23,427 nt of DNA from a virus. The notes beneath the pieces are model-generated. The model did no database searches and was not told the DNA's origin. It worked only from the letters and a program-made list of their open reading frames with translations. Location of the stretch: UHGV virus genome UHGV-1543744; one strand, 5' to 3'. The position numbers and the translations under genes were made by a program. Below, piece by piece: positions 976-22,162 of the stretch; position 1 is the stretch's first letter; the number at the start of each line of letters is the position of its first letter.

Positions 976-1007
976 ATCCCTATTCCCATCATTAAATAAT
1001 CGGACTA

Positions 1008-1035
1008 ATCCTACCAAGAATCAGCAAAACGACAA
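1008..1035 (-). promoter_or_regulatory. Possible sigma70-like promoter for the lipoprotein gene
   Basis: Minus strand has TTGTCG, a 16-nt spacer, then TAGGAT about 30 nt upstream of the ATG at 975. Weak match to consensus, read by eye only. Confidence 0.2.
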
Positions 1036-1056
1036 AACCCGTACTTAAGCTGGCTA

Positions 1057-5101: not shown

Positions 5102-5263
5102 CGGTGTTCACCTTTTTATTCACGCGCCGGATATCACCCGCTGCTTCACGGCGCAGCCAGTAGTTGTTCTCGTCAACATTTCGCCCTTCGGCGGGCAAAA
5201 GGTCACCGCGGGCAGGGTCAGGCACTGACCGCCCTTTAACAGGTTTCACAAACATGAAGATTC

Positions 5264-7032: not shown

Positions 7033-7034
7033 AC

Positions 7035-7235
7035 TCAGCCCTCTTTACTGGTCGTGGCTTTTTTCTCTTTTGTCGCTTTACTGCTTTTTGCACTGGTTCC
7101 GCGCTCTGCTAACCCGGCCTGAAGTGCAATCTCCTGCACCCGGGCAGGAAGCGCCCCGTCGTCATACTCACCGGCCCGAATGACCTCAACACGCATACCG
7201 TCCGGTGACCATTTCAGATCTTGTTTCAGGATCAT
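7035..7235 (-). CDS. Small Lys-rich protein, unknown (possible head-associated protein)
   Basis: 66 aa ORF directly after the major capsid gene and the GC hairpin. C-terminus is Lys/Ser/Thr-rich (SKATKEKKATTSKEG). Weak Shine-Dalgarno. Confidence 0.4.
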   Translation of the reverse strand: MILKQDLKWSPDGMRVEVIRAGEYDDGALPARVQEIALQAGLAERGTSAKSSKATKEKKATTSKEG

Positions 7236-7256
7236 GATTCTTCACCCGTCAGAACA

Positions 7257-7278
7257 GGGGGCGCGGTTCCGCGCCCCT
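7257..7278 (-). other. GC-rich stem-loop just downstream of the major capsid gene
   Basis: GGGGCGCGG-TT-CCGCGCCCC: 9-bp perfect G/C stem with a 2-nt loop, 7 nt after the capsid stop codon. No U-tract follows, so it is not a classical intrinsic terminator. Confidence 0.5.
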
Positions 7279-7284
7279 GAGTGA

Positions 7285-8490
7285 TTACGCCGCTGCAATC
7301 TTCAGCAGTTTGATGGCCTGCGAATCGACCAGCATCCCGCCGGTGCGCTTGGTGGTATAAAAACCGACAAACGGTTTATTGGTGTACGGGTCACGCAGAA
7401 TGCGGGTGCCGATACGGTCAACGATGGTGTAACCCCGTTTGAAGTTACCAAATGCAATGGCTTTCGCATCAGCGGCGATATCCGGCATCTGTTCGTTTTC
7501 AGCGATACCGTAACCCGCCAGAGAGGACGGCTGCCCCAGTTCCAGCCCCGGACGCCACAGATAGTTACCCTCGGTGTCTTTCAGCAGACGGATGGCAAAC
7601 AGGCTGTTGTTGTTCATCATGAACTTCGCGCCAGTGCGGTGTGCCTTACGCAGCGTGTAAATCAGTTTGATAATGGCGTCTGCGGTCACCGCGGTCGCTT
7701 CGCCGGATACAATATGCTGAAGTTTGCCGAACGCCCGGACCTTGTCGGTTTCATCGGTGGATTCATACGCCAGGAACCCTTTCGGCTTCTTGGTGCCATC
7801 GCCTGAGGTAAAGGCAATTTCTTCCTGTTCGGCAAATTCGGTTGCCAGCTCGCTGTTGATCCAGGCCTCCACGTTGAAGAAGGCATCGTCCAGCATTTTC
7901 TGGGTAGCCTGCGGGTTGCCGTAGATTTCCCCCATGAGAGGTTCAATCAGCTCCAGTCTGGAGGTGGCAGTCTGGGATCGCGTATCCGTTTCCCCCACCC
8001 ATCCGGAAGCCGTACCGCCCAGATTCACCAGTTTTTTGTAGTCGGAACCGCCAACGGTGATCACCGTGGCTTCCTGACGCATCACCACTTCATCTTTCAG
8101 CAGGTTAAGAATGTTGCGATCCAGTTCTTCCGGCACGGCATAGCCACCGTCTTCATCGGTGCCCACCTGCAATGCCTTGCGCTCCAGATCGCGCAGACCG
8201 TCTTCACGGCCTTTACGCAGGAAGCCCACAAACGCCTCTTTATGCTCGGTGGCCAGTTTATTTTGCGCACCACCTGCCGGACGTTTCAGCTCAAGCAGCT
8301 CTTTTTCAAGGTCGCTTTTGAGATTTTCCAGCTCGCTGAGTTTCCCGTTCAGGGTTTCCACCTGCCCGGCAAGTTTGCCTTTTTCCTGCTCAATCGCATC
8401 CACGCGCTTGTCGTTCTTTGCTTTGAAGTCGTCAAACTTCTGCTGCAGTTCCTGCGCGACCTGTTCGACATCTTTAATATCTACCGCCAT
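7285..8490 (-). CDS. Major capsid protein (HK97-fold type with N-terminal coiled-coil scaffold-like region)
   Basis: 401 aa, directly downstream of the prohead protease. N-terminal ~100 aa is a Glu/Lys/Leu-rich coiled coil, typical of HK97-type capsid delta domains. ATG with AGGAGA Shine-Dalgarno. Confidence 0.8.
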   Translation of the reverse strand: MAVDIKDVEQVAQELQQKFDDFKAKNDKRVDAIEQEKGKLAGQVETLNGKLSELENLKSDLEKELLELKRPAGGAQNKLATEHKEAFVGFLRKGREDGLRDLERKALQVGTDEDGGYAVPEELDRNILNLLKDEVVMRQEATVITVGGSDYKKLVNLGGTASGWVGETDTRSQTATSRLELIEPLMGEIYGNPQATQKMLDDAFFNVEAWINSELATEFAEQEEIAFTSGDGTKKPKGFLAYESTDETDKVRAFGKLQHIVSGEATAVTADAIIKLIYTLRKAHRTGAKFMMNNNSLFAIRLLKDTEGNYLWRPGLELGQPSSLAGYGIAENEQMPDIAADAKAIAFGNFKRGYTIVDRIGTRILRDPYTNKPFVGFYTTKRTGGMLVDSQAIKLLKIAAA

Positions 8491-8504
8491 CGTATTTCTC
8501 CTGA

Positions 8505-9155
8505 TTAGAAGTTCAGATTTTTCAGTGCATTCAGTGCAGAGCTCACATCCTCAGCGTCGCGCAGGGACAGTGCGCCATAGCCCCCGGCCATGAATGCTTT
8601 GGCCTGGGTACGGGAGAGTCCGACATCACGCAGGACTCTTTCGATTTTTTTCTGTTCGGGGATTTCCCCGCGGGCCAGTGCGTTCTTGACGTCGCTGATC
8701 CGCGCCTCGTCGTTAGACGGGAACGTCACCAGGCTGACTTCCCAGAGGTCGATTTCTTTCAGCAGAAAGGCTTCTTTGCTCCGGTCGTATTCCCAGTCTT
8801 TCAGGACGTACCCAATAGAAAGGCCGGTTAACGAACCGGCCTTCATGTGTGCATGTGCGCGTTTTGCGAGGGGATCATCATCAATAAGCAACCGTCCCCT
8901 GACGTAAAGCCCGACATCGTCTTCCTTCATTTCGGTGTAAACACCGATGGGTTCATCCATGCGGTGCTGCCAGAGCAGCGCAGGTAACGCTTTTCTGTCA
9001 CTCCACGCCCGCAGGGAAGCAGCAAATGCCCCGGACATCACCACATCATCGTGGCTGTCCTTTACACCAAAGACGGAGCCATACCCTTCAAACTCACCGG
9101 AGTCACTGACAGATTTCAGACTCAGCGGTACATCAAGACGTTGTTTCGTCTGCAT
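8505..9155 (-). CDS. Prohead protease (HK97 family-like)
   Basis: Positioned between portal and major capsid genes. Start moved to ATG at 9155 (MQTKQRLDVPLSL...), which has an AAGGA Shine-Dalgarno. The ORF-track start at 9191 has none and would overlap portal further. Confidence 0.7.
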   Translation of the reverse strand: MQTKQRLDVPLSLKSVSDSGEFEGYGSVFGVKDSHDDVVMSGAFAASLRAWSDRKALPALLWQHRMDEPIGVYTEMKEDDVGLYVRGRLLIDDDPLAKRAHAHMKAGSLTGLSIGYVLKDWEYDRSKEAFLLKEIDLWEVSLVTFPSNDEARISDVKNALARGEIPEQKKIERVLRDVGLSRTQAKAFMAGGYGALSLRDAEDVSSALNALKNLNF

Positions 9156-10374
9156 TGGCGTTATCCTTCTGCTTACCGGCCTTACTGCCATCGGAGGGTT
9201 TCGTGGTCATGTTCATCGGTGTGAGATAGACATCACCACCGGGACGCGGATTCATATCTTCCAGGTCGCGGCAGTCATTGGGAGAGTAAATTCCCCAGTT
9301 AATCCCGGTGGCGTAGGCTTCAAAACGGGACTTCATATCCCCGCGCAGTAACGCCCCGGCGTTAAATTTGGCGTAATAAACGCCCTGCTTACTTTTTCGT
9401 ACCAGTCCGGTGTTGATCCGCTGTTCGATGCGGGTCAGATACGGCACCAGTGAATAGTTGATAAATCCGAGCCCCAGTTCTTCGATATTGTTGAAGGTGG
9501 CGCGATCGGTGTTCTGCACCATGTGCAACGGCACCCGGAACAGACGACAGATTTCTTCAAGCTGAAACTTGCGGGTTTCCAGGAACTGGCTGTCCTCGGC
9601 GTTCAGCGCCATCGACTTCCAGTCCAGCCCCATCTCAAGGATCATCGGGCGGTGAGCATTACCAAGCCCGGTGTGACGCTCCTCAAAATCTTTCTTCAGG
9701 CGCTCGTAAGCCTGATCTGACAGCGTCTGCTCTGTACGCAACACACCCGACGTCACCGCGCCATTGCTGAACAGTCTGGCCCCGTGCTCTTCGGTCGCTG
9801 CCGCCAGCGATATTGCCTCGCGGGCATAGGCGATGGGATTCAGTCCCACCAGACCGTCCAGCGTCAGCGTGCGCACATGCCAGATATCTTCCTGGCTCAG
9901 TACATCCGTGGAGCCGTCCGGGAATGTGACCTGGTAAACCGGTTCCCAGCTACTGTTAAGCTTCGGTACCACACAACCTGGGTCGACGGGCAGCAGTTCA
10001 GCCACTTCGCCAAATGCTTTCACTTTGTAGGCGTAAAAGTTTCCCCGCAGGCACAGACAGGTGACCACCAGCTCCCAGAACTCCTGCGGCGTCATATAGC
10101 CATTGGGACGCGTGGAGATCAGCTTATGCAGACGTTCGCCGGTGGCTCTCTGTTTCAGGCTGCCGTTCAGGTGATACAGGTTGCAGGGCAACATCCCGAC
10201 CGACTCCGCCAGCACCCTGACGCAGGAAAAAACCGCCGTCAGTCGCATGGCCCGCTGGCTGCTGATCTGCTTTCCGGTATAGGTGTCATATGACAGCCCG
10301 ATAGCATCCGCCAGCTCTGCTGGCGTGGTCACCGGTGCGTCACTTTTTCGTTGAAATAATCCCGAAAAGAACAC
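9133..10374 (-). CDS. Portal protein
   Basis: 413 aa, immediately downstream of the large terminase and upstream of the protease. Start codon is GTG at 10374 with a strong GGAGGT Shine-Dalgarno 6 nt upstream. Acidic, Lys-rich C-terminus. Confidence 0.75.
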   Translation of the reverse strand: MFFSGLFQRKSDAPVTTPAELADAIGLSYDTYTGKQISSQRAMRLTAVFSCVRVLAESVGMLPCNLYHLNGSLKQRATGERLHKLISTRPNGYMTPQEFWELVVTCLCLRGNFYAYKVKAFGEVAELLPVDPGCVVPKLNSSWEPVYQVTFPDGSTDVLSQEDIWHVRTLTLDGLVGLNPIAYAREAISLAAATEEHGARLFSNGAVTSGVLRTEQTLSDQAYERLKKDFEERHTGLGNAHRPMILEMGLDWKSMALNAEDSQFLETRKFQLEEICRLFRVPLHMVQNTDRATFNNIEELGLGFINYSLVPYLTRIEQRINTGLVRKSKQGVYYAKFNAGALLRGDMKSRFEAYATGINWGIYSPNDCRDLEDMNPRPGGDVYLTPMNMTTKPSDGSKAGKQKDNANADETTS

Positions 10375-10556
10375 TATTTACCTCCGCCGACAGACGGCTG
10401 TGTACGGTCGAGATATCGCGCCACCAGCCACGACCAGAACAGGCACAGCGCCCCGGCAACAACAAACCCCGCCGGGGGATAAATCAGCCAGGCACCATAC
10501 GCCAGCAAAAGCGCACCCAGCACGCCCACCAGAGGCGCGAGAATCAGCATGATCAT
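10374..10556 (-). CDS. Small membrane protein with two predicted transmembrane helices and a charged C-terminus
   Basis: 60 aa with two hydrophobic stretches and a charged tail ([14 protein letters not shown]). ATG with GAGGT Shine-Dalgarno. Lies between the terminase and portal genes and overlaps the portal start by 1 nt. Confidence 0.5.
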
Positions 10557-10567
10557 AATTACCTCAG

Positions 10568-12301
10568 TTAAAGCGAGCGGATCCCGTAGGACTCAATGTG
10601 ATCAGACAGCGTGTCTTCTTTCTCGTACAGCATGGCTCTGCCAACCGCCATAATCAGCGCAACTGCACCATCAATTTTGTTTTCCGCCTGCTCTTTGACG
10701 GGCTTCACCACATCATCGTTACCCGGAATGGTTTTGCCGACCACATTGCCGATACACCAGGTCATGATGGGATTGCCGTCATGATGAAAGCGCTCCGATT
10801 CAATCGCCGCTTCCAGTTCTTTCATCGGATCGGACATGTTGGTGTAGTTCTGAATGATGGTGATGGGGTTCAGGTCTTCATCAGCAAGGTCATGCGACAA
10901 CCCGGTCGCCCCGAAGGGGTCGATGGGTGACTCACTGACCGGGCTGATTTTGTTCGCCGCTTTGGCCTCCTCGAGGATGTAGCGATAATCCACCTCTGCA
11001 CCATCGGTAACGGTCAGAACGCCCATTTCCACCCATTTCTGAAAGCGTTCGGCTGTCCGGCGATCTTCATTTTTCTCGACGCTGTACACCGTGTCATACG
11101 GTACCCAGAAGCGCGGAGCCACACTGTAGTAATGCGTTTTACCGTCAATCTCGCGGGTATAAAGTCGCGCCATGCTGTTCATATCCAGCTTACGCGCCAG
11201 GTCAAAGGCCAGAATGCACGGCTGCCCCTCGAACTGCTCAAGGGTCAGTGATTTATCCTCGCAGCTCTGCCAGCTCACCAGGTTGAAATACGCCGAACGC
11301 GCCGACACCCAGATATTGAGGTGTTTTGTTTTAAAGACGTTTGCCAGACGGGCGTTATTTTTCGCACGCTGCTGCTGACTTAACAAAAATTCGCGATAAA
11401 CCGACACGCCAATATTTGGATTGGCTTTTTCCAGCACCTGCGGGTCGGTCCAGTCGTCACCTTCATCAACGGTATAGATGATCCCGAACAGTTCATCGTT
11501 AGGCACCGAGCCGTTGAGCATCTCGATAACTTCCCGCCGCTTGTCGTAGCACGGCCCCTCAATGTTGTACCCGGCAGTAGTAATGGCCCACATCAGTGGC
11601 TGACGTCGCGCCCCCATCCCGGTAAGCATCGTGGTGTAAAGCGCATCGGTGGCGTGCTCGTGATATTCATCCACCACCGCACAGTGGGGTGATGATCCAT
11701 CACCGGGGTTACCGATCAGCGGTTCAAACCGCGCGCCATCCTCCGGACGGTTCATGTTTGAGGCGTTAACCTCAATCCCGAACGCTTCCGTCAGCATGGG
11801 TGTGCGTTTACACATCAGTCGCGCCGGGCGAAAGACTTCCCACGCCTGTTTCTCTGTCGTGGCACCGGAATACACTTCCGCGCCAAACTCGTTATCACAG
11901 GCAAAACAATACAGGGCAACACCGGCAGAGATTGCTGATTTGCCGTTCTTACGGGGGATTTCGGTATACACCTCCCGGAAGCGGCGCAACCGGGTGCCTT
12001 TATTGACCCAGCCAAACGCACAGCAGATCACAAATAGCTGCCACGGCTCCAGCGTGATGGGCATCCGTTTAAATGCCCACTCACCCTTGGTGTGCGGCAA
12101 CAGCTGAATAAATTTGGCGGCCCGTTCAGCCAGATCCTTGTCGAAGCGGTAACGAAACGACTTACTTTTTTCCGCCATCAGGTCATCAAGATGGCGCTGG
12201 CAGGCCTGAATCACAAACTGGCAGGCCACAATCTTTCCGCGCACGACATCCCGGGCATACTGATTGGCAGCATTTACGTTGGGGTAAGATTTCCGGCTCA
12301 T
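10568..12301 (-). CDS. terL: Terminase large subunit
   Basis: 577 aa, directly downstream of the small terminase subunit. Size and position fit; the NTPase and nuclease motifs were not aligned explicitly. Confidence 0.75.
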
Positions 12302-12314
12302 GATTCGATGATTT

Positions 12315-12800
12315 TCAGATTGTCAGAAACGGGTTAGTGGCTTTCTTCTTCCCCGCCAGGCCAATCAGACGCTGTCGGCTGCTGGGGTCGAGTCCGAGCA
12401 TTGCCCCCGTGCTGCTCATCTCGGACTCCTGTTCTTTTTTGGCGGTCAGCTCCGGATTTTTGACCATGCCACCCATTGCACCGGTGATGGTGTTACCCTG
12501 TCTGGCAATATTTTTCACGGCACGTCGCCAGAACTCATAGGCCACACACCACCGCTCAAGTACCGCCAGGTCAGTCACGCACAGCAGGCCCTGACCGCAG
12601 AGTTCTTTGGTTGTCAGTTGCCACATGATCGTGGCGAGAGGGAGATCTTCTTCAGCGAACCACTCCGGTGGCTCAACACCTTTGATGGGCGTAAAAACAG
12701 GTTCATCTTTATTCAGGGCTCGCTTGCCGGGGTTTCCGGCCAGCGCCTTGCGCGCCGTTGGCTTGGGGCGACGCCCGGAACGCCCCGCCGTTCCAGCCAT
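12315..12800 (-). CDS. terS: Terminase small subunit (P27-family-like)
   Basis: Gly/Arg/Lys-rich N-terminus ([29 protein letters not shown]) typical of P27-type small terminases. Start moved to ATG at 12800, which has an AGGAG Shine-Dalgarno 8 nt upstream. The ORF-track start at 12809 is a GTG abutting the Shine-Dalgarno. Confidence 0.7.
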
Positions 12801-13010
12801 ATGCGGCACTCCTGGTTAAATTTCATTTTTCGCGGGTATAAAAAAACGATGGGGCGGGCAGTCCCGGATAGTCAGGGCTGTAGAGATTTGACTACCCCCT
12901 CCCCACTGGATTCAGGTTACTGCTATTCCGTTAATCGCTGCTTACGGGGATAGCTGCGTTGTGATTTTGACCATTCAGGTCGCCGCTATTTCCTCACCGA
13001 TTGGGTGCTA

Positions 13011-13034
13011 CGCGTGCGCGTACTTGTCCCGAAA
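13011..13034. repeat. Box CGCGTGCGCGTACTTGTCCCGAAA upstream of terS, repeated at 19144-19380
   Basis: The 14-mer CGCGTGCGCGTACT is identical at 13011-13024 and 19144-19157. TACTTGTCCCGAAA is identical at 13021-13034 and 19367-19380. A 12-mer copy lies at 19263-19274. All copies are in the same orientation. Confidence 0.6.
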
Positions 13035-13076
13035 TACCAGAAACCGCCAGCCAGAGGATGATTTCCCTCTGGTGGT

Positions 13077-13358
13077 CTACCTTTGCCTCTTGCCGCCATT
13101 TAACCGGAAGGCGTTACCGTTCGGTTGCGCTATCCCCATGCGGTGTTGCGTTTCGGTAACAGCTTTATGCAGGTCGCCAAAGTCCTCAACCTTCACGGGC
13201 GGGCGCTTCACGTTCTCCAGACACGTTTCACGGCGGCGCTTTATCCATTCCCGATCATCGTCCTCGGTGCATAACAGCATGACTTCCATCCATCGCGCTG
13301 CGGCGCGTCGGTACAGCCCTTTTGCTTCCAGATCCTCGGCTTTACTGTCGTTTACCAT
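13077..13358 (-). CDS. Small putative transcriptional activator, PerC-like (tentative)
   Basis: 93 aa. N-terminal motif ...KAEDLEAKGLYRRAAARWMEVM... resembles the PerC/Pch family as I recall it; this was not verified by alignment. ATG with GGGGGAG Shine-Dalgarno. Last gene before the terS upstream region and followed by a hairpin (CCAGAGG-N9-CCTCTGG). Confidence 0.35.
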   Translation of the reverse strand: MVNDSKAEDLEAKGLYRRAAARWMEVMLLCTEDDDREWIKRRRETCLENVKRPPVKVEDFGDLHKAVTETQHRMGIAQPNGNAFRLNGGKRQR

Positions 13359-13360
13359 GT

Positions 13361-13831
13361 TTATCTCCCCCAGAATGGCGTTTCATCGTCGAATGGTGGG
13401 CGTTGGTCAAAATCATCAGGGGTATTATATAACTCCCATCCCGGCGCGGATTGTGTTGTGTGGCCCCTGCTGGCTCCGCTTGCTTTGACTGATTCGGCCC
13501 GCTTCCCGCCGGGGCGTACCGTTCTGGCGCTGATCACGCTGTCGGCTACTACCTGATAACCTTGCTGTGTACCGCCATCCTTGCCCGTCCACTGATTGAT
13601 CTGCATCGCTCCGGCAACACTGACTAAATCGCCTTTAACGTGTCCTGCCAGTGCGTCGGCCTGTTTGCCGAATGCCACCACGCCCAGCCAGAAAGTAACC
13701 TCTCCGCCCTCTGCTGCATGGCAGGGCAGTGCCACCGCTAACCGGCCCATTGCCATGCTTGTACCGTTTGCTGTGGTACGGGTCTGGGGATCTGCCACCA
13801 GCCGCCCGTATGCTGAAATTTGTGCTGTCAT
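13361..13831 (-). CDS. Single-stranded DNA-binding protein-like (OB-fold)
   Basis: 156 aa. Residue pattern W..FGK..A...KG..V.V.G.L..NQW...Y.VVAD is consistent with an SSB OB fold, and the C-terminus is acidic with a PF tip (DDFDQRPPFDDETPF...). ATG with GAGGAAA Shine-Dalgarno. Confidence 0.5.
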   Translation of the reverse strand: MTAQISAYGRLVADPQTRTTANGTSMAMGRLAVALPCHAAEGGEVTFWLGVVAFGKQADALAGHVKGDLVSVAGAMQINQWTGKDGGTQQGYQVVADSVISARTVRPGGKRAESVKASGASRGHTTQSAPGWELYNTPDDFDQRPPFDDETPFWGR

Positions 13832-14130
13832 AGATATTTCCTCATGTAGTCACTACCTCCGGGGATAATTTTCATTTCTTCCCTTAAAGGCCACTGCTCC
13901 GCCATTGCTGCGGTCGAGTGATTCCCGTCATCACGTCCGGCCTGTGCTGCCGTCCAGTGTGTTGCATATTCTGTAAATCCAATTTCTGCTGGCTGCCTCA
14001 TCCAGTGGGCGATCATCCTCAAGGTCATTTGCAGGCTTTGGGTGTCGCCCTGTAATGCGCGTTTGTCAGTAAACCCCTTCAATGCTTCACGCTCCTGATA
14101 GGTCATTTTCTGGCTGGTTTCTGTATTCAT
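13828..14130 (-). CDS. Hypothetical protein
   Basis: 100 aa, ATG with AAGGTGG Shine-Dalgarno, ATGA-coupled to the SSB-like gene. First gene after the iteron region. Confidence 0.5.
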   Translation of the reverse strand: MNTETSQKMTYQEREALKGFTDKRALQGDTQSLQMTLRMIAHWMRQPAEIGFTEYATHWTAAQAGRDDGNHSTAAMAEQWPLREEMKIIPGGSDYMRKYL

Positions 14131-14183
14131 TGCCCACCTTCGTTATAAGCTACCCCCCCCATAGAATCTTTTTGGGGGTGTAA

Positions 14184-14433
14184 TATCCCTACCAATCCCT
14201 ACTAACTGTCTCAGGCCACGAATGGCAAGGCTTTCAGACTGGTAGGCATTCAATTTTGTTGCCCTACATAACCCTACTTATCCCTACTAAATCACTTCAA
14301 CGGCATTTTACTGCCTGTTTTATTTGGTAGGGATATGTAGGGATAAGTAGGGATAAAAATATATATCCCTACCTAGTTTAAAGCCTTGCTACGTCTGGCC
14401 TCGTCTCGTTTTTAGTAGGGCAGTAGGGATAAG
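14184..14433. repeat. Iteron cluster, putative replication origin
   Basis: About 12 copies of the core GTAGGG/CCCTAC. Reverse copies lie at about 14187, 14197, 14262, 14272, 14282 and 14367. Three perfect tandem 10-bp units GTAGGGATA(T/A) lie at 14327, 14337 and 14347, followed by the AT-tract AAAAATATATAT (14355-14366). Further forward copies are at 14414 and 14423. The cluster is immediately 3' of the primase-helicase stop. Confidence 0.6.
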
Positions 14434-14449
14434 TGCCGCCGTAAAAGTT

Positions 14450-16891
14450 TCAATCATCACTCTGCCCGCTCTCCACACCGTAAGCGCGTGGCATGAACTC
14501 CTCAGCCTTCTCGTTATAGCCAACGTTGGTTTGCGCTCTGCCGTTAATGCTTCTCGTCAGGTAGCTGGCTCGGTACTCTTTTGCTGCTGATTTTATGGCG
14601 CGTGAAAACTTATTGACGGAAAGCGGTTTACCCAAACCGTGATACTCCATAAACGCCAGATAAAGATGATAAAGATACGTCCTCGGCTCTGGCTGGCCTG
14701 CCCATGTACCTCCGCCCATCATCATGCCTTTGGGTTCGTTCATGAAAAAAAGCGCCGCACACATATCGACAACCGGATCCGTGCCGCGTTTAACCTCTAG
14801 CGCCTCCTGCGAATCGCGCTGCTCTAGTAATAGTGCTTTTGCTTTGTTCTGGTCGGCAAAGGTGGTTAGCAGGTGGCGGATAATCACCGGGATTTCTCGC
14901 CTGATTTTTGCTGTTAAATCCGGGTCTTTGTCTGCGTCTGATACCGGGTTATTAAACGGGAATATCACGCGGCGGCGGGCAATGCCCCCGTTTCGCTCCG
15001 TGAATGTCATCGGCTCGTTATTGGTTGCCATAACAACGGCATTTATCACGGTTGTGAACTGCTTTTCATATTTCCCATCAATCTCTACCGGATCGCCGCC
15101 CGTAATGGCTTTAATCCCCGCACCCTCTCCAACATAGCGGGTCTGGTCAGGCATAATAATCAGGCTTTTTCCTACGAACTGCGCCCGTCCCCGTGCGGTG
15201 TCCAGCGTCATCATGCTACCGCTGGCGGTGTTGTGTTCACCTGCCAGCGTGGTTGCTATACTGCTGAATACGGATTTCCCACTGCCGCCCTCGCCAGTTA
15301 TCTCAATGAATAGCTGCCAGTCGTGACGCTTCGCCAGCACCATAAACAAGGCTGCTTTGATACGCTCGGCCTTATGATGGTCGCCAGCCGTTGCATGATT
15401 CAGCCAACGGGTAAAATTGGGGGCGCTGGTGGTAATATTTTCCCCCGGCGCTGGCGGGGTGTAGGTGATCCCATTGTGGTTCATCAGCCAGTTACCCGGC
15501 GAATGGGCGGAAAACGTCTGCGTGGCGAGGTCATAAACGCCGTTATCAAAACCAATCAGATCCCCGCTCCGCTCACCAATTACCGGTATTTGCAGCTTCA
15601 TGGTTGCGACAACCGATTTAATCCCCTTTTCGGTGTAGTGGGCTTCGTGCTCGTCGAAAATTGCCACCATAACCCTTTCTAATTCACTGTCTGGTAGCTT
15701 CACCCATACGCCAGATTCGTAGCAGTAAACAGTGCCACTATCAGGGTTAACCGCCAACATATCCCATCGAGATGAAAGCAACCGCGCTTTCTGGCTGGCT
15801 GCCATTTGTGCAATATCTCCGACTTCGGCTTTACGGCGGGATTTACCGCCCGCAATGGCCTGTAGTTGTGGTTTCACGGCTTCCCCCTGAATCTGGTACA
15901 TCGAATCGTTAAACGCAGCCGTAGCGACTTCCAGCCCGTTTTGCTGGCGGTAGTCGTCCCAGTCGGCTTTGTAGTCTGTCGGCGGCAGCGCCACCCAGCC
16001 AGCCACGGATAATGCTGCTTTCTCTGCGGCATCTTTGCCCGTGTTCGCCTGTTCGTCCTGCTGGTGGTCGTTATCTGCGGCAATGATAATTTGCGACTGC
16101 GGGTGTTTCCGGCGCATTACTCTGGCAACGTGGATCAGGTTCCCGGCGTCAATTGCCGACACTGTAAGCGCGTCCGGGCGCATCAGGTGAACGGACAGGG
16201 CCGTCGCCAGCCCCTCGGCAATTAATACGCTCTGCGGCTGTTCCGGTGCGTTAACGGCGTGATATGCCCCGCGCTTTGCTGAACCTGTCAGGAGTCGCTT
16301 CTCTCCCTGCGGTGTAATGGTTTGCGCTGCTGCCACTGCGCCGGATTCGTCCACCAGCTCCAGCAATAACGAACCATCCGGCATTACCGGATATTTAAAC
16401 CCGGTCAGCCCTTTTGATTGCAGGTAATCAGATTCGCCCTGTGTGGCACTCTGGCGCATTCCGGCATACAGACGGGCAAACGTAGCCCTTCGCTGCTCTG
16501 CGTCCTCTGCTGCCTGTTTCTGGCGCTCCTGCTCACGCTGCTGGCGGTCAGCTTCCAGTTGCTCCCTTCTATGGCTCGCTGCCACCGGATCGGTTTCCGC
16601 TGCCCGGTAATCAATACCCAGCACATCAGCGGCAAGCCTCGCCGCTTCTGTGGTGGCGCAGTTGTTCACCTTCTTAATCAGGTCTAAACCGTCACCAGCG
16701 CCACACTGATTGCAGATAAAGCTACCGCGCCCGTTGTCGTCGAATCTGAAACGGTCTTTTCCACCACATGCAGGGCATGGAGAATGGCGGCGCGATGAAT
16801 CAGGCACGTCGATAGACAATCCAGCCAGCACATAAGGCCAGCGCCCGGCGGCGGCACTGGTCACTTCGCGGATAAGGTCGATATTACGCAT
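14450..16891 (-). CDS. DNA primase-helicase (zinc ribbon, TOPRIM-like primase core, C-terminal P-loop NTPase)
   Basis: N-terminal CxxC...CxxC zinc ribbon (CPACGGKDRF...CNQCGAGDG), acidic TOPRIM-like motifs (AEG...IIIAADNDH), and a C-terminal Walker A (GEGGSGKS). Start moved to ATG at 16891, which has a perfect AGGAGG Shine-Dalgarno. The ORF-track start at 16948 is a GTG. Confidence 0.8.
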   Translation of the reverse strand: MRNIDLIREVTSAAAGRWPYVLAGLSIDVPDSSRRHSPCPACGGKDRFRFDDNGRGSFICNQCGAGDGLDLIKKVNNCATTEAARLAADVLGIDYRAAETDPVAASHRREQLEADRQQREQERQKQAAEDAEQRRATFARLYAGMRQSATQGESDYLQSKGLTGFKYPVMPDGSLLLELVDESGAVAAAQTITPQGEKRLLTGSAKRGAYHAVNAPEQPQSVLIAEGLATALSVHLMRPDALTVSAIDAGNLIHVARVMRRKHPQSQIIIAADNDHQQDEQANTGKDAAEKAALSVAGWVALPPTDYKADWDDYRQQNGLEVATAAFNDSMYQIQGEAVKPQLQAIAGGKSRRKAEVGDIAQMAASQKARLLSSRWDMLAVNPDSGTVYCYESGVWVKLPDSELERVMVAIFDEHEAHYTEKGIKSVVATMKLQIPVIGERSGDLIGFDNGVYDLATQTFSAHSPGNWLMNHNGITYTPPAPGENITTSAPNFTRWLNHATAGDHHKAERIKAALFMVLAKRHDWQLFIEITGEGGSGKSVFSSIATTLAGEHNTASGSMMTLDTARGRAQFVGKSLIIMPDQTRYVGEGAGIKAITGGDPVEIDGKYEKQFTTVINAVVMATNNEPMTFTERNGGIARRRVIFPFNNPVSDADKDPDLTAKIRREIPVIIRHLLTTFADQNKAKALLLEQRDSQEALEVKRGTDPVVDMCAALFFMNEPKGMMMGGGTWAGQPEPRTYLYHLYLAFMEYHGLGKPLSVNKFSRAIKSAAKEYRASYLTRSINGRAQTNVGYNEKAEEFMPRAYGVESGQSDD

Positions 16892-17225
16892 GGTTGCCTC
16901 CTGCCACGGTCGCGCCCATGTCTTTAACCATGCTTTGCCATATCTCACGCCCGACGTCAGTCAATCCGTCATTAGTGACGCAACGCTCAAGAAGCTCGAC
17001 CCCCACGGTTTCCCACTGCGGGTAGGACACTTTCATGGCTGCCAGTGTGTAGCTATCGATCAGGCTGCGAACGCCTTTTACTCCATTGACGATTTCCACA
17101 CGGACGGCGAGGCCGTCCGCATCAACCATGAAATAGTCACCGCCGCTGGTGGAGGTAATGTGGTTATACAGTGCCGACGCATACTTATTCGCCAGCGCAT
17201 TCAGTCTGAAATTTTTAGTAATCAT
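16884..17225 (-). CDS. Hypothetical protein
   Basis: 113 aa, ATG with GAGGGGG Shine-Dalgarno. Its stop overlaps the primase start by 8 nt. Confidence 0.5.
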   Translation of the reverse strand: MITKNFRLNALANKYASALYNHITSTSGGDYFMVDADGLAVRVEIVNGVKGVRSLIDSYTLAAMKVSYPQWETVGVELLERCVTNDGLTDVGREIWQSMVKDMGATVAGGNHA

Positions 17226-17234
17226 GTCGCCCCC

Positions 17235-17861
17235 TCAGTGCGGCAGCGGCATTTCAGGCCAGCCGTTTTCATCCAGTTCAGCTATAAAGCTGTTGTGAAG
17301 TTCAGCAAGCGTTTCACGCCCGAACGGGGTCAACTCGCCGCGCTCCGTGTCGATCATGGCCTGATAAAAAACAATGGCGTTCGCTGTTCCCTGCTCAATG
17401 CCGTAGCGCTCAACCATTGCGCCCTCCATGTTGTTAGCCATCGCCAGACGTTCCGCGAACGGGTAAACCACAATCCCCGCCGTGCCATTGGAGTAAATCG
17501 CCACCTGCGATGAAGTGCCGTCAGACTCAGTTACCGTGGTTGTGCCGTTTTCGCGCTTCATCTCAGAAATGAACGTCGCAGCAATCAGCCAGCGCCACAT
17601 AGTGACGTTATGCTGCGCGGTGAAGTCGAACCAGCCACGCGCCCCGCCATCAGCAACGGCAAAATGAATGGCGTATCCGATATCTGGCTTATCGTCGTAC
17701 TCTCCGGCGTCAAGGCCGTTCACGGCGCTCTCGTAGCTGATAAGAGCAACCTGCTCATATCCCCCGGCATCATTGCGGGTCATGATATTGACGCCGTGCG
17801 GTGTGGCTTCGGCGTGTAATAAGTCGGCATTTCCCGATTTAATGGTCGGTGCGTTGCTCAT
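17235..17861 (-). CDS. Hypothetical protein
   Basis: 208 aa, ATG with GGAGGG Shine-Dalgarno, ATGA-coupled to the upstream gene. No recognisable family. Confidence 0.5.
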   Translation of the reverse strand: MSNAPTIKSGNADLLHAEATPHGVNIMTRNDAGGYEQVALISYESAVNGLDAGEYDDKPDIGYAIHFAVADGGARGWFDFTAQHNVTMWRWLIAATFISEMKRENGTTTVTESDGTSSQVAIYSNGTAGIVVYPFAERLAMANNMEGAMVERYGIEQGTANAIVFYQAMIDTERGELTPFGRETLAELHNSFIAELDENGWPEMPLPH

Positions 17862-18121
17862 GCGCTGCCCTCCGCATCAATTCTGGCTATATCGACAATC
17901 GTCAGGACTTTACTCAGCCAGCAATACGCGATGGCTGCTTGCTCAACTTCGAGGAGTGGTAATAAATCGGTCATAACGTGAGCCAGCCCATTGCGGGCGC
18001 GGGTCATGCGTTCTGCTGTTCGGTCCGCCAGCGTAAAATCATCCGGGTATGCTTCTTTACGAGATAGCATCGATTCGGCTTCCAGATCTGCCGGGTGGCG
18101 ATAGATGGTATTTATGTTCAT
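17858..18121 (-). CDS. Hypothetical protein
   Basis: 87 aa, ATG with GGGAGGG Shine-Dalgarno, ATGA overlap with the upstream gene. Confidence 0.5.
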   Translation of the reverse strand: MNINTIYRHPADLEAESMLSRKEAYPDDFTLADRTAERMTRARNGLAHVMTDLLPLLEVEQAAIAYCWLSKVLTIVDIARIDAEGSA

Positions 18122-18432
18122 TTGCCCGCCCTCCCTTTGGCTTCTTTTTCACTGATTGAGCGCAAGAATGCGGCGTTTGCAGCGCTATCGTTCAGCGCCA
18201 GCGCAACTTCTCCGATATGTCCCAGCATTGCGCCTAATCTGTACATATCAGCCTTAGCGCTTTCCTCCGGGTAGCCATCGCTACCAGCCGCCCAGAACAT
18301 GAGGCTACCAATGGCACTTACGCCCAGCATTAAATCATCCACGGCATCACTGGCGCAGCTCTCAATTCCTTTCAGATCATCAGGCGTACAACCATCAAAT
18401 TTGCAGGACACTAAATCGTTATACATGCTCAT
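18118..18432 (-). CDS. Hypothetical acidic protein
   Basis: 104 aa, ATG with GAGGTGG Shine-Dalgarno, ATGA overlap with the upstream gene. Confidence 0.5.
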   Translation of the reverse strand: MSMYNDLVSCKFDGCTPDDLKGIESCASDAVDDLMLGVSAIGSLMFWAAGSDGYPEESAKADMYRLGAMLGHIGEVALALNDSAANAAFLRSISEKEAKGRAGK

Positions 18433-18608
18433 GCCGCCACCTCACGAACGCGGGTAATCTGGATGTGGGAAAGGCGTTCATTTCTGGCCTGATTTAGCGC
18501 CTCAGCTTTGGCGCTGATCGCGCTGCGGGCGTCAACGATATAAACGAACTCGACTAATTCGCCGCTCCGGGCGGTGGCGCATCCTGCAACACGGAAGTAA
18601 TTAAGCAT
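18429..18608 (-). CDS. Hypothetical small protein
   Basis: Start moved to ATG at 18608 (MLNYFRVAG...), which has an AGGGGG Shine-Dalgarno. The ORF-track start at 18638 is a TTG. Confidence 0.45.
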   Translation of the reverse strand: MLNYFRVAGCATARSGELVEFVYIVDARSAISAKAEALNQARNERLSHIQITRVREVAA

Positions 18609-18792
18609 GTGCGCCCCCTGTGCGAATACGTCCGGCAAAAAAGCAAACGTGATCCCGCGCCAGAATGCGGCGGGCTTCCTGCTCAGTCTCTGCGGCGATA
18701 TGGTGAATTTTGACGGTAATTGTCGGCATATCGCGGCGAACTGCGGCGATAATCCAGATAAATTGCGGTTTTTGGGTAGGGGTAGTAGCCAT
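18601..18792 (-). CDS. Hypothetical small protein
   Basis: Start moved to ATG at 18792 (MATTPTQKPQFIWIIAAVRR...), which has an AGGAGG Shine-Dalgarno 8 nt upstream. The ORF-track start at 18960 has none. Confidence 0.45.
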   Translation of the reverse strand: MATTPTQKPQFIWIIAAVRRDMPTITVKIHHIAAETEQEARRILARDHVCFFAGRIRTGGAHA

Positions 18793-18950
18793 TATGGCAG
18801 CCTCCTGTAACTGGGATTTATTCCCACCACCGGAAACGCCAATTTCACTGGTGGTGAGCTGAACAGGGTTGGCGTAACCGGCGTTACAGGAAACCGGCGC
18901 GGATCGCTCCGCCCCCATCCAGCCCACCATTACTTTTTGAGCAATATGGG

Positions 18951-19550
18951 CTATAGCCATATCGCTGGGAAAGAGGTGTGCAGATGCGAGGACACAAAAA
19001 AGACGCTCGGCGCGTCATGTGTCGCCTGTAACATTATCAGGACGCCAATCCCGGCACCAGATTTTGCTGGTGCGCTATAACCATAAACCGGGTTGGCGAT
19101 AGTCGGCAAGCCCTTTTTTATGGACTCCAGAAACTCACCTTCGCGCGTGCGCGTACTGTTGCATAAATTCCCTGCATCTAGTGGTGATGTCAGAAAAATC
19201 TTCCCGCCTCGTGTAGTGATGATGGGAAAATCTTCCTCGCGTAGTGACCCCCAATAAATCTTCGTGCGCGTACTGGTCTCGAAACTCTCCTCGTCACCAC
19301 GACGAGAAAATGAGGAGCTGGCATTAGCTGGCACTGTTATGCCAGCTTCGCATTCATGCGCGTGCGTACTTGTCCCGAAAACACCAAGATTTGTAAAGAT
19401 CTGGCGGTGGCAAATGTCAGGTTTTGACAGGTTCCAAACGTCGCTATTTGTCGCAATCTGGCGGCGGGCTGCTTTGCTCCAGACGTTAACATTTGCATAC
19501 ATCAGGCCAGCCAGGGGAAAGGCTTTATTCTGGATGGCGGCATTAAGCAT
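18951..19550 (-). CDS. Questionable ORF spanning the repeat-rich region
   Basis: 199-aa ORF with an ATG at 19550 overlapping the antirepressor stop, and a G-rich weak Shine-Dalgarno. It runs through the tandem repeats, three hairpins and the box shared with the terS upstream region, and uses many rare codons (ATA, CTA, ACA, AGT). It may be a regulatory or noncoding region instead. Confidence 0.3.
   Translation of the reverse strand: MLNAAIQNKAFPLAGLMYANVNVWSKAARRQIATNSDVWNLSKPDICHRQIFTNLGVFGTSTHAHECEAGITVPANASSSFSRRGDEESFETSTRTKIYWGSLREEDFPIITTRGGKIFLTSPLDAGNLCNSTRTREGEFLESIKKGLPTIANPVYGYSAPAKSGAGIGVLIMLQATHDAPSVFFVSSHLHTSFPAIWL
19131..19310. repeat. Array of about six degenerate tandem repeats with a roughly 30-bp period
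   Basis: Units begin at about 19131, 19164, 19194, 19227, 19255 and 19281, with consensus roughly (G/T)AAAT(C/T)TTCC..CG..GTA(G/C)TG(A/G). Spacings are 33, 30, 33, 28 and 26 bp, so they are not locked to codon phase. Flanked by inverted repeats at 19054-19073, 19290-19306 and 19326-19347. Confidence 0.5.
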
Positions 19551-20376
19551 GATTAGCCCCCAGATGTTTAGCTAACCAGCGCTGAGAGAGGCGGATTAGC
19601 TCGGCTTTACGCAGGTCATATCCCATACCCATATCAATCAGCGTAATGTTGGTACTCTCCAGGTAGGCGAGGTGTTCCAGTTGCCCTGCGTTCATGCTGT
19701 CCCGTGGTTCGCCAGTAATGTCATTTGCCTGCGCCCACTGCTTCGCCGTCATGCCACCCAGCACGATACGGGCGATCATGTTGCTCTCGTTGCTGTAGTG
19801 GCGAGCCTGCGTCTGTTTACCCTGTTCTGCGCGGGCGCTTTCCAGCGCTACGCACATCGGTTTAAACAGGTTGGCGGCACTGATACGGGCTTTTAGCTGG
19901 CGACGATAGCGGGCGGCGATTTCAGGCACGCTACGCTGTAATTCTTCCTCGCACTGGATGAAATAACGGCGGATAGCGCGGCCCTGTTCAGTGCGTTCGA
20001 TCATTGCCAGTTCTTTCGCCATTCCGACACTTAACAGATAGTCTTTGCCGGGTCTGCCAGAGTGCTTAATCTTGCTGTAAGCCGCGCCATTCGGGCTTTT
20101 CCCCAGATTTGGGGAAATTGTTTTATGGACTGAGTAATCGTGCCCAATGGTGAAGTCATATTCAGAGATGCGATCAGTGATCCATGTAGAGAAGTCTTTT
20201 CCCACGCCCAACGCTTTGTGTAACGCTTTTGCGCTAACAATATTGGTTTCACGCCCACCGATATGACCAGGAATAACCGGGACAATTGTGGCAAATTCAT
20301 TACCGTTAATTGTTCCCTGATAGGCGTTCAGATGAGGGGCGGCCTCAGAAATTAATCTGCTTTTTTCGATGTTCAT
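19543..20376 (-). CDS. Phage antirepressor-like protein (Ant/Rha-type N-terminal domain with ORF6C-like domain)
   Basis: 277 aa. N-terminal segment ...IVSAKALHKALGVGKDFSTWITDRI... resembles antirepressor N-domains, and ...DYLLSVGMAKELAMIERTEQGRAIRRYFIQCEE... resembles the ORF6C/KilAC-type domain (from memory). ATG with GGAGA Shine-Dalgarno. Confidence 0.55.
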   Translation of the reverse strand: MNIEKSRLISEAAPHLNAYQGTINGNEFATIVPVIPGHIGGRETNIVSAKALHKALGVGKDFSTWITDRISEYDFTIGHDYSVHKTISPNLGKSPNGAAYSKIKHSGRPGKDYLLSVGMAKELAMIERTEQGRAIRRYFIQCEEELQRSVPEIAARYRRQLKARISAANLFKPMCVALESARAEQGKQTQARHYSNESNMIARIVLGGMTAKQWAQANDITGEPRDSMNAGQLEHLAYLESTNITLIDMGMGYDLRKAELIRLSQRWLAKHLGANHA

Positions 20377-20388
20377 TTTCAGTCTCCG

Positions 20389-20823
20389 TTAGGCGGCGGT
20401 GAGATTGTCCGGGTATAGGTTGAGAATGTCGGCAATTTCAGGCTGAGAAAGTCCCTGATAGCCGCCAGCGTCGGCGTTATGGTTCACAAGCCGAATAACT
20501 TTTAGAACGTCACCGCGCCCGGTAAAGCGATAGCGTAAATGTGACCCTATCCCGTCGGGGTTCTTTTCGTCTATACGCTCAAGCTGAATATCAAGCCTGC
20601 GCTCTAACTCGCTGGCGTAGTTCCTTCCAGATGAAAGGCGGCAATATTGCAGAATGTCATTTTCTGTCCATCCCTCTATACCAGTACGCAGCATATAGAC
20701 GCGGGCGCGGTGTTTCTTTGGGGTACGCTTAGGTACTTGTACCGGGCTGGTGGTCGGCGTAATATCAGACGTGCGAATATCTGAGTTAGCCGCCTGCTGT
20801 ACGGGGCGGTTTTTCTTTTTCAT
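20389..20823 (-). CDS. Hypothetical protein with basic, Pro/Thr-rich N-terminus
   Basis: 144 aa, ATG with AAGGTGG Shine-Dalgarno, start overlaps the AlpA stop by 1 nt. N-terminus MKKKNRPVQQ...PKRTPKKHRAR suggests nucleic-acid binding. Confidence 0.5.
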   Translation of the reverse strand: MKKKNRPVQQAANSDIRTSDITPTTSPVQVPKRTPKKHRARVYMLRTGIEGWTENDILQYCRLSSGRNYASELERRLDIQLERIDEKNPDGIGSHLRYRFTGRGDVLKVIRLVNHNADAGGYQGLSQPEIADILNLYPDNLTAA

Positions 20824-21041
20824 TACGCCACCTTTCCCCGGCGCTCCGCCAGCCAGTTGTGAATCTCAACCGCATCAAACGCAGTCACGTTATCTGTTAG
20901 CTTCACTGGGCGTGGAAGAGTGCCATTTTTAACCCATCTATCAATAGTAGGCAGTGAAACACCTAGCAATTCCGGCATGCGAAAGCGACGGATGTATCCA
21001 GTTGTTGGGATAGCTGATGATGCTGGCTTGTGTGCTGTCAT
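20823..21041 (-). CDS. alpA: AlpA-family (MerR-like helix-turn-helix) transcriptional regulator / excisionase-like protein
   Basis: 72 aa. Motif ...RMPELLGVSLPTIDRWVKNGTLPRPVKLTDNVTAFDAVEIHNWLAERR matches the AlpA/Xis helix-turn-helix family of P4-like elements and PICIs. First gene after the AT-rich leader. Confidence 0.7.
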   Translation of the reverse strand: MTAHKPASSAIPTTGYIRRFRMPELLGVSLPTIDRWVKNGTLPRPVKLTDNVTAFDAVEIHNWLAERRGKVA

Positions 21042-21121
21042 ATCTCTAGTAACCTCTCTGATAGCTCATGAAGTTACTTAAAGTTTAGTGGTTGCCCATA
21101 CAGTATTTCTATTAAGACTAG

Positions 21122-21174
21122 AATCTATTGAAAGAAATTATAAATCTATTGAAAAAATACTGATCCACTGAAAG
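21122..21174 (-). promoter_or_regulatory. Putative alpA-operon promoter with flanking operator-like direct repeats
   Basis: Minus-strand TATAAT (plus 21137-21142) lies between two perfect copies of TTTCAATAGATT (plus 21122-21133 and 21143-21154), with a third degenerate copy at 21162-21173. Repeats are spaced about 20 bp apart. No good -35 is visible. About 90 nt upstream of the alpA ATG. Confidence 0.3.
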
Positions 21175-21511
21175 ATTGCAAATGCAGGTGGGATAATTAT
21201 TTTCTTTATTTTCAATTAGTTACCAGTTTAAAAAATCATTGTTTTATCAAAGAGTTATATCTTTCATCGTCATTCATCATGTTTTTACATTTCCTTTTAT
21301 CTTTTATTATTCAATTGGTTGAGTCGGTTTATAATGGCTCATGATGGCTTAAAATGCTAATGATAGCTGGCGTATCTTTTAGAGATGGGGTGATTACAGA
21401 TGAACTAAGCCGAACAGATATAGCAATGGCTAGGCATAGAATTATCTATGCTGGTGGAGATGGGTAAACAGGTAATGCCCCGCCATTGCTTTGGAGGGGC
21501 GTGAAAAGTGA

Positions 21512-22162
21512 TTAGTCGAGATCGTGGACAGCTAATAAAGCCCGTGAGATTTTTTCTAGGAATGTGGCTTTTGCTATTCCTTTATGGGATATCCCTTCAT
21601 CCTTGATTAAGGTTTCTATGTCACGGTATATAGCTGTGCGATTAGGTTTCCCATTTTGGGTGTAGGAAGATGAGCCTGATTTTTTTATCAGCAGATGTAC
21701 TATCAACCCCATCATTTTCATTGTCCCGTTTTCCTCATCCTGCTTTCTATGCTGCCCACGTCCGCTGCGGTTGGTTTCTTTGATGTAGTTTACTAACTGG
21801 AGTCCTCCAAGGTTTCGGGCTTTTTCTTCCCAGCCCTTGGTGCCACGCAAATCATCAATCGCTTCTGATATTTTCTGAACAATTATTTCTGGTGTATTTG
21901 TGTCAATAAATGGGTAAGAAGCTAAGAAAATATCAAGGGCATGGCAAGGCTCGTCTTTACTAGTTTTTTCACCTCTGTACACCTTGATAGCTCTGGCAAG
22001 ATGAGTTCTGACAAAATCGACATATTCGAAATTTTCCTCAGGCACATCGCTAATGCGCATAGATGGGTTTAGGCCAGCCAAGGCCACAGCCATTTCATGA
22101 GGGGTAATCGATACAGATGAACAAAGCCGTTCGATTGGCGATTTTCTCAAGATGTTGTTCAC
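21512..22162 (-). CDS. Hypothetical cargo protein, translationally coupled to the integrase
   Basis: 216 aa. GTG start at 22162 with a strong GGAGG Shine-Dalgarno 5 nt upstream, overlapping the integrase stop (GTGA). Visibly lower G+C than neighbouring genes. No recognisable family or catalytic motif. Confidence 0.55.
   Translation of the reverse strand: MNNILRKSPIERLCSSVSITPHEMAVALAGLNPSMRISDVPEENFEYVDFVRTHLARAIKVYRGEKTSKDEPCHALDIFLASYPFIDTNTPEIIVQKISEAIDDLRGTKGWEEKARNLGGLQLVNYIKETNRSGRGQHRKQDEENGTMKMMGLIVHLLIKKSGSSSYTQNGKPNRTAIYRDIETLIKDEGISHKGIAKATFLEKISRALLAVHDLD

Follow-up and report, generated by a model that had tools for sequence, protein, structure and literature searches.

A dyad-symmetric iteron array 3′ of a P4-type primase-helicase gene, the likely replication origin of a Gram-negative PICI

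The DNA analysed here (the window, 23,427 nt at its full length) is a composite of three parts. Positions 1–284 are core sspA–rpsI intergenic DNA; positions 257–12904 carry the structural module, from the tape measure gene to terS, of an HNH-cos myovirus-type prophage; and positions 12807–23427 are 99.96% identical to a 12-kb island (L001) that E. coli GDSC2239PM carries in its dinD–yicC interval. The genes of this island, every one of them on the same strand, encode or comprise an integrase, an AlpA/Vis-like HTH protein (PHROG 66), antA, ash, an icd-like gene, small ORFs, a primase, ORF100, ssb and perC; virion and lysis genes are absent. Because this gene set is that of a Gram-negative PICI, we take window 12807–23427 to be a PICI; since sid, delta and psu are not annotated in the island, we do not regard it as a P4-like satellite.

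In the window, island and phage DNA are joined at 12807–12904. The junctions of the composite are absent from all 5426 complete E. coli genomes, and the integrase start codon is the exact end of the window. Either a rare rearrangement or a join made during assembly could account for the composite. The ∼100 bp downstream of perC (window 12807–12904; L001 19008–19105) are 86% identical to the HNH–terS intergenic region of the prophage of the same genome (L002 26551–26648; E 8e-24). The segment is probably a pirated cos site; if so, that phage type would be the likely helper and the fusion point in the window would be explained. Elsewhere in the island, the ash/icd-like region contains matches to C4 antisense RNA (RF01695, 76.9 bits) and isrK (RF01394, 75 bits), both above the Rfam gathering score, at 18847–18934 and 18996–19073 respectively, on the minus strand. 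In this region the island seems to carry an RNA immunity module of the P1/P4 type.

The replication cassette of the island was found in 77 of the 5426 complete E. coli genomes. In E. coli 33-6 (L078; NZ_CP050031, 3602346–3633247), a primase–ori–ORF100–ssb cassette that is 99.6% identical lies in a different island at tRNA-Thr/proA, in which the integrase and the cargo differ. Because a near-identical cassette is present in another island, the replication module is apparently exchanged between PICIs. A blastn search of 50,697 phage records with 13800–14700 gave no match, and an IMG/VR scan for the triple iteron described below returned two short contigs, one of which (L079) has an 819-aa ORF beside the site.

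All genes around the locus lie on the minus strand. The replication genes, in the order in which they are read, are as follows.

14450–16891, minus strand: P4-alpha-type primase-helicase (Pri-Rep) with Zn ribbon, Toprim, D5_N, SF3 helicase and C-terminal domain (Pfam, PHROG 2249)
14504–14782, minus strand: C-terminal putative origin-binding domain of the primase-helicase, residues 723–815 of the 832-aa ORF, the proposed iteron reader (phmmer, PF03288)
13828–14130, minus strand: ORF100, without a Pfam family
13361–13831, minus strand: ssb (PF00436)
13077–13358, minus strand: perC (PF06069)

The order ORF100–ssb–perC matches that of the PICI EcCICFT073, and the Pfam families confirm what the preliminary description, made from the sequence and its open reading frames, had assigned to these genes, ORF100 having none. 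The island SSB probably supports replication. RefSeq labels the primase ‘phage/plasmid primase, P4 family’ and places its start at 16891 (813 aa), overlapping the stop of the upstream ORF; the longest ORF starts from a GTG at 16948 (832 aa), and residue numbers given here follow this 832-aa ORF. The protein is 39% identical to P4 alpha over 812 aa. Its C-terminal domain matches the P4 origin-binding domain, PDB 1KA8 (phmmer, E 4.2e-8, 93/100 residues), and its helicase part, residues 408–668, matches chain 7OLA_A, deposited as ‘DNA primase’ (E 4.5e-11), which we take to be SaPI5 PriRep. When the C-terminal 133 aa were modelled with AlphaFold from the single sequence, the mean pLDDT was 51.5, too low for a fold search, and the winged-helix assignment therefore rests on the sequence match to 1KA8. 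In the alignment of C-terminal domains, no residue-to-base recognition code was evident in the YxTRxxxGxxQTN segment.

The 319-bp gap between the primase-helicase gene and the ORF100–ssb–perC block (14131–14449) is occupied by an array of short repeats, here called iterons, whose parts are listed from the primase side after the array as a whole.

14184–14431, no strand: putative origin as a whole, 12 iterons, dyad-symmetric (repeat searches, hairpin fold)
14415–14431, plus strand: primase-proximal iteron pair (GTAGGGCAG, GTAGGGATA), 8-bp spacing (from the sequence; same position, +22 and +30 from the stop, in L004–L007 and L044)
14380–14389, minus strand: second motif GCAAGGCTTT in the proximal 42-bp spacer (largely conserved in the five-genus alignment)
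14364–14372, minus strand: proximal inverted single iteron (GTAGGGATA), its position, +78, conserved among relatives
14353–14366, no strand: A/T-only tract of 14 nt, of which 8 nt (14356–14363) lie between cores; candidate melting site (least stable 20-mer)
14327–14355, plus strand: proximal triple, three perfect cores at 10-bp spacing (Tandem Repeats Finder, period 10)
14288–14326, no strand: central 39-bp spacer, 67% A+T, alternative candidate melting site (sequence, PICI/SaPI paradigm)
14302–14315, no strand: GGCA-N6-TGCC mini-palindrome at the dyad centre (sequence)
14259–14287, minus strand: distal triple (GTAGGGATA, GTAGGGTTA, GTAGGGCAA), 10-bp spacing (repeat searches)
14242–14250, plus strand: distal inverted single, degenerate (GTAGGCATT), 2 mismatches, mirroring 14364–14372
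14225–14234, plus strand: second motif GCAAGGCTTT in the distal spacer, mirroring 14380–14389
14184–14202, minus strand: distal iteron pair (GTAGGGATT, GTAGGGATA), 10-bp spacing (repeat search)

The array thus contains 12 sites of the GTAGGGATA type, seven perfect and five degenerate, and in the whole 23.4-kb window there is one further perfect GTAGGGATA, at 3139. The GTAGGG core occurs 11 times in the cluster, as against ∼0.14 expected per 250 bp from base composition, and twice more in the remaining window; the degenerate GTAGGC at 14242 is the 12th copy. Likewise, the count of the most frequent 6-mer per 250-bp window reaches 10–11 in the cluster, compared with 4 in the remaining window and 4–6 in Markov-1 simulations (n = 100). 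Within the island this is the single GTAGGG cluster: one further hexamer stands alone at 18776, and the additional part of L001 has none. The presence of one cluster argues for a role as ori, without proving it.

The sites form a near-perfect dyad centred at ∼14308, with two mirror-image halves, each consisting of a pair, ∼40 bp, an inverted single, an 8-bp A/T tract and a triple phased at 10 bp. Read in the sense of the genes, the proximal half comprises a pair (−) at 8-bp spacing, a 42-bp spacer, a single (+), the 8-bp A/T tract and a triple (−); after the 39-bp centre, the distal half comprises a triple (+), an 8-bp A/T-rich tract, a degenerate single (−), a 39-bp spacer and a pair (+). The offsets of the iterons from the primase stop, with their orientations, are 22−, 30−, 78+, 98−, 108−, 118−, 163+, 173+, 183+, 248+ and 258+. 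The 67% A+T centre (14288–14326) has six sites to either side, in line with the PICI/SaPI paradigm of A/T-rich DNA flanked by sets of iterons. A repeat search found the array to be an inverted repeat with 80-nt arms that are 73% complementary, and as single-stranded DNA (256 nt) it folds into one long hairpin with a dG of −57.4 kcal/mol, as against −24.1 ± 3.5 for shuffled sequences (z −9.5).

These results agree with the preliminary description in its count of about 12 copies, inverted on both sides, and add the mirror symmetry. They require some corrections of detail. The three head-to-tail 10-bp units, which had been called perfect, do have perfect cores at 10-bp spacing, and Tandem Repeats Finder reports a 10-bp unit in 3.0 copies with 95% matches at 14327–14356; the full units are nevertheless identical at 9/10 positions, the tenth base varying (GTAGGGATAT, then ...A and ...A). 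The A/T-only tract said to abut the triple is present, but its length is 14 nt rather than 12, with 8 nt between the cores. Finally, 18 nt, and not the 15 nt stated for the cluster, separate the nearest iteron core from the primase stop codon (14450–14452).

Two further elements of the gap are not iterons. The motif GCAAGGCTTT occurs once in each pair-to-single spacer, symmetrically about 14307, and recurs exactly in the Tatumella (L044, +208) and Aeromonas (L064, +113 from the primase stop) origins. Because it occurs in origins with other iterons, it is not expected to be read by the C-terminal domain. A C5/G8 inverted run with a 12-nt loop (14150–14177; minus strand CACCCCCAAAAAGATTCTATGGGGGGGG) separates the last iteron pair from the ORF100 ribosome-binding site. 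A Klebsiella relative (L076) has it too, and the five-genus alignment keeps the G-run and the A-run, but not the pairing. TTATCCCTAC and TTATCCACA were compared as well, and this lead was dropped as they are alike in their first six bases only.

The A/T content of the array offers two candidates for the site of melting. GC is 0.34–0.38 over 14250–14375, and the least stable 20-mer of the region, 14353–14372 (dG −18.9), is in the top 0.14% of the whole window. The A/T-only tract in question, whose distal partner is 14251–14258, had been proposed as a DNA-unwinding element. It is indeed the least stable spot, and it is retained in the five-genus alignment, in the Klebsiella relative and, in the form of a T-run, in EcCICFT073. 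The A/T-rich centre between the triples is, however, the place to which the PICI/SaPI paradigm points. The pair-to-single spacer is A/T-rich in EcCICFT073, in a second PICI, EcCIRM13514, in Tatumella and in P4, but not in the window. Since this spacer is not A/T-rich here and the A/T tracts are short (8–14 nt), the position of the unwinding site is uncertain. No DnaA box (≤ 1 mismatch) was found in 14131–14449, which fits an initiator that loads itself. A scan of 13700–14800 detected neither a sigma-70 promoter nor an intrinsic terminator, and no Rfam family was matched in the gap, the only matches being C4 and isrK, 4.5 kb away.

We then compared the locus with those of its relatives, as the preliminary description had suggested. 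Scanning one genome per species yielded 70 loci encoding relatives of the primase. Approximately 12 of them have clear arrays, whose layout is constant and whose iteron varies. The offsets are nearly the same as in the window in Kluyvera, Atlantibacter and Buttiauxella, which share the iteron GTAGGG, in Rosenbergiella (GTAGAG) and in Tatumella (GTGAACA), and they are similar in Yersinia, Aeromonas, Tolumonas and Klebsiella. GTAGGG is also present in Aeromonas; GGTAGA is found in Yersinia and Aeromonas, GGTAGAC in Tolumonas, GTAGA(C/G)GTA in the Klebsiella element, and GTGAACA, the P4 type I iteron, in Rahnella, Erwinia and Serratia in addition to Tatumella. In Rosenbergiella the same G-to-A change has been made in 9 of the ∼11 copies. 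A five-genus alignment largely retains a CAAGG-TT motif as well as the iteron cores and the A/T tract, whereas the other spacer positions diverge. Most relatives have a single cluster within ±6 kb.

The class of iteron tracks the last ∼117 residues of the primase, and not the body of the enzyme or the downstream genes. The Tatumella and Rahnella primases, whose iterons are of the P4-type GTGAACA class, are 72% and 69% identical to the window primase in the body, but 34% and 33%, respectively, in the C-terminal domain. For Rosenbergiella (GTAGAG) the corresponding values are 69% in the body and 82% in the C-terminal domain, and for an Aeromonas locus with GTAGGG (L039) they are 45% and 59%. This co-variation points to the C-terminal domain as the determinant of specificity, and together with the match to 1KA8 it suggests that this domain apparently reads the iterons. 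The downstream genes behave differently: ORF100 is 76–79% conserved in Tatumella, where the iterons are different, and absent in Kluyvera, where they are the same. We rejected ORF100 as the reader of the iterons on the ground that the iteron class does not follow it among the relatives. The array is kept without ORF100, ssb and perC in several relatives, and it stays with the primase despite different or absent downstream genes in P4, L008, L039, L060, L062 and L064, and in L004, which lacks ORF100.

Some relatives depart from this pattern. A Serratia fonticola locus (L009) encodes a C-terminal domain of the GTAG class (56% identity), and 3′ iterons were not found in 8421–8900; the next ORF begins ∼85 nt past the primase. 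Its origin has either been lost or is situated elsewhere. In the Xenorhabdus and Proteus relatives there are 3–4 weak copies only. Separately, the Klebsiella pneumoniae record NZ_CP033626 (L076), a 22.9-kb circle deposited as a non-mobilizable ‘plasmid’, is a related island of the same layout, with int, primase, ori, ssb and perC together with a 2.8-kb tape measure gene. It may be an excised or replicating satellite caught by assembly.

We consider it very probable that the cluster is the vegetative replication origin of the PICI that occupies window 12807–23427. The observations that carry this reading are the repeats themselves, the dyad layout and its conservation, and the co-variation of iteron and C-terminal domain. 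The proposal that it is an iteron origin served by the adjacent primase-helicase is thereby supported, as it is by the PICI context, the homology with EcCICFT073 and the match to 1KA8.

P4 alpha and SaPI Rep serve as models for how such an origin might be used. Induction would be followed by synthesis of the P4-alpha-type Pri-Rep of the island, whose C-terminal winged-helix domain would recognize the 9-bp GTAGGGATA sites, those of the triples being placed on one face of the helix by their 10-bp phasing. Pri-Rep would then oligomerize on each mirror-image half-origin and melt an A/T stretch, either 14353–14366 (and its partner 14251–14258) or the 39-bp centre. It would load itself as a 3′–5′ hexameric helicase of the SF3 type, with probably one hexamer on each half and no need of DnaA, DnaB or DnaC. 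Its own Toprim primase would prime, the host Pol III would extend and the island SSB would coat the single strands. Binding, melting, initiation, self-loading and bidirectionality at the window array are all inferred from these analogous systems.

An alternative, which we regard as improbable, is that the array is a crr-like, cis-acting enhancer: the primase would bind it, replication would start elsewhere, and the array would act by looping. Its position right after an alpha-type gene is exactly that of P4 crr, with P4 ori lying 4.7 kb off, and P4, as the best-studied relative, requires two iteron regions that lie apart, of which crr is not the start site. However, the island contains no second GTAGGG cluster and most of the relatives have a single one; in EcCICFT073, a single 3′ array together with Pri-Rep suffices for plasmid maintenance (PMC6092414); and each half of the window array is laid out like the P4 ori core, not like a crr unit. 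Less probable still is an array of operators whose sole role would be to regulate ORF100–ssb–perC transcription, or to terminate or insulate read-through from the primase gene, upon binding of the primase or a different island protein. This was the refuting case named in the preliminary description, and there is something to be said for it, because the array spans the whole intergenic gap upstream of ORF100 and, as no separate promoter or terminator was detected, transcription probably crosses it. Binding of the initiator could well modulate read-through transcription as a side effect. As the main function, however, regulation of the operon is unlikely, since the array persists beside the primase in relatives in which the downstream genes, ORF100, ssb and perC, differ or are missing, the iteron class follows the primase C-terminal domain and not ORF100, and twelve sites in a 250-bp dyad far exceed the needs of an operator.

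Short inverted and direct repeats are also typical of other cis-acting sites, such as those for packaging or for partition (centromeres) and integrase arm sites, and they could in principle be a decaying repeat with no function. We give these possibilities hardly any weight. A separate cos-like segment is present at 12807–12904, and the island annotation lists no packaging protein; a ParB-type protein was not found among the scanned island proteins; and the integrase is 8 kb away. The array was rejected as integrase arm sites or as a cos site on its position. Decay, for its part, is excluded by a layout conserved across genera in which the iterons change in concert.

The preferred reading, a vegetative origin, places the locus among origins of a kind already described, the PICI ori 3′ of pri-rep, homologous to the P4 ori and crr sites, and our current view of how such origins work is unchanged by it. 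What is new is the iteron GTAGGGATA, found together with a full-length P4-type primase in a PICI, and the comparative evidence that the layout remains constant while iteron and C-terminal domain change together. For annotation, the finding locates the origin within a PICI replication cassette that islands at different att sites have in common, and it shows the island half of the window to be a satellite, distinct from the neighbouring phage. The series of relatives also provides a ready set for studying how the winged-helix domains of alpha and Pri-Rep proteins read DNA, and could help to predict which satellites coexist or cross-replicate. We offer a broader scheme tentatively, believing that it has a smaller chance of being right than wrong. 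The compact dyad after the primase might be the ancestral origin of the alpha family, from which the P4 ori and crr would have been derived by splitting; exchange of the ∼110-aa C-terminal domain along with the iterons might create replicon specificity (incompatibility) groups among enterobacterial satellites, with GTAGGGATA representing an uncatalogued group; and the iteron-independent GCAAGGCTTT might be a second component of the origin, either a site for a host factor or a priming signal.

Several known classes of origin resemble that of the window to different degrees. The oriV of iteron plasmids (RepA, pi or TrfA class) likewise has repeated initiator sites beside an A/T-rich region. It differs, however, in having 17–22-bp direct repeats, an initiator that is not a helicase, and a need for DnaA boxes and DnaB/DnaC loading, whereas the window sites are 9 bp, in both orientations and without a DnaA box; in addition, a Pfam search identified no Rep_3-type protein among the neighbours. 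SV40 T antigen and papillomavirus E1 are SF3 initiator-helicases with a DNA-binding domain of their own that act at dyad origins, in which short inverted sites flank A/T-rich DNA and the assembly of double hexamers has been proposed. The likeness is one of mechanism only; these are initiators of eukaryotic viruses and have no fused Toprim primase. In the SaPIs, ori lies directly downstream of rep and contains 6–12 short iterons that flank an A/T-rich region in opposite orientations (Ubeda et al.; Qiao et al. 2022, PMC9371898); the iterons are read by the C-terminal winged helix of Rep or PriRep, and two hexamers are proposed to load (PMC9371898). The window has the same arrangement, with iterons of opposite orientation on both sides of an A/T-rich region directly 3′ of the primase, but the SaPIs are of a Gram-positive lineage, have 5–6-nt iterons and show similarity confined to the helicase part of the protein.

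A closer likeness is found among the Gram-negative PICIs, whose origin has been defined as the region immediately 3′ of pri-rep; deletion experiments with EcCICFT073 showed it to be necessary for replication (Fillol-Salom et al. 2018, ISME J, PMC6092414). A pri-ori plasmid of EcCICFT073 was maintained at the restrictive temperature, and its delta-ori and delta-pri derivatives were not (PMC6092414). As in the window, the EcCICFT073 primase gene is followed by a gap, of 288 bp, and then by a small ORF, ssb and perC. The gap contains 11 GGTAGA(C/T)A sites in the same order of pair, single, triple, triple, single and pair. The two primases are 55% identical over 441 aa that cover the helicase and the C-terminal domain (E 9e-171). 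They differ at the N-terminus, which in the window protein (813 aa) is a P4-like Zn-ribbon/Toprim region and in the 584-aa EcCICFT073 protein is of another type, and the window iteron is GTAGGGATA and not GGTAGAYA. The iteron sequence was not found in the supplements of the EcCICFT073 study, whose Fig. 2a gives the iterons as an image (PMC6092414). EcCIRM13514, a PICI placed at the yicC–dinD locus (PMC6092414), shares with the window island its locus, its gene order and a post-primase origin of the same layout, and its integrase DNA is 74% identical. Its iterons, in contrast, are GGTGAACA (P4 type I) rather than GTAGGGATA, its primase is a 607-aa protein with 48% identity over residues 379–827, and its att repeat, GAGCAGATTCAA, is absent from L001.

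P4 itself remains the most instructive comparison. In its GenBank record, crr (4291–4590) lies directly after alpha (stop 4636), and ori is 4.7 kb away. P4 alpha is reportedly a 3′–5′ helicase and a primase in one protein, and is said to be independent of DnaA, DnaB, DnaC and DnaG, its C-terminal domain reportedly recognizing the origin (Ziegelin et al. 1993, 1995; Yeo et al. 2002). The preliminary description had considered the window motif to be unlike the P4 repeats. This holds for the sequence, since the P4 type I iteron is TGTTCACC and that of the window GTAGGGATA, although a GGT-purine start is common to both, and no GTGAACA cluster is present in the window. It does not hold for the architecture. 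The window cluster takes the position of crr after alpha, and each of its halves (14327–14431, and the mirror copy 14184–14287) has the layout of the P4 ori core (9310–9413), in which a pair of CTGTTCACC is followed by a 35-bp A/T-rich spacer, an inverted GGTGAACA and three CTGTTCACC at 10–11 bp spacing; the arrangement of the crr units is unlike that of the window halves. Whereas P4 has a bipartite system of ori and crr, 4.7 kb apart, the window island has one compact dyad. The putative window origin is therefore made up of two P4-ori-like units, inverted with respect to one another and carrying a different recognition sequence. Its presumed binding protein is homologous to that of P4, and the site itself is a homologue of those of P4 that has another specificity, rather than an unrelated design.
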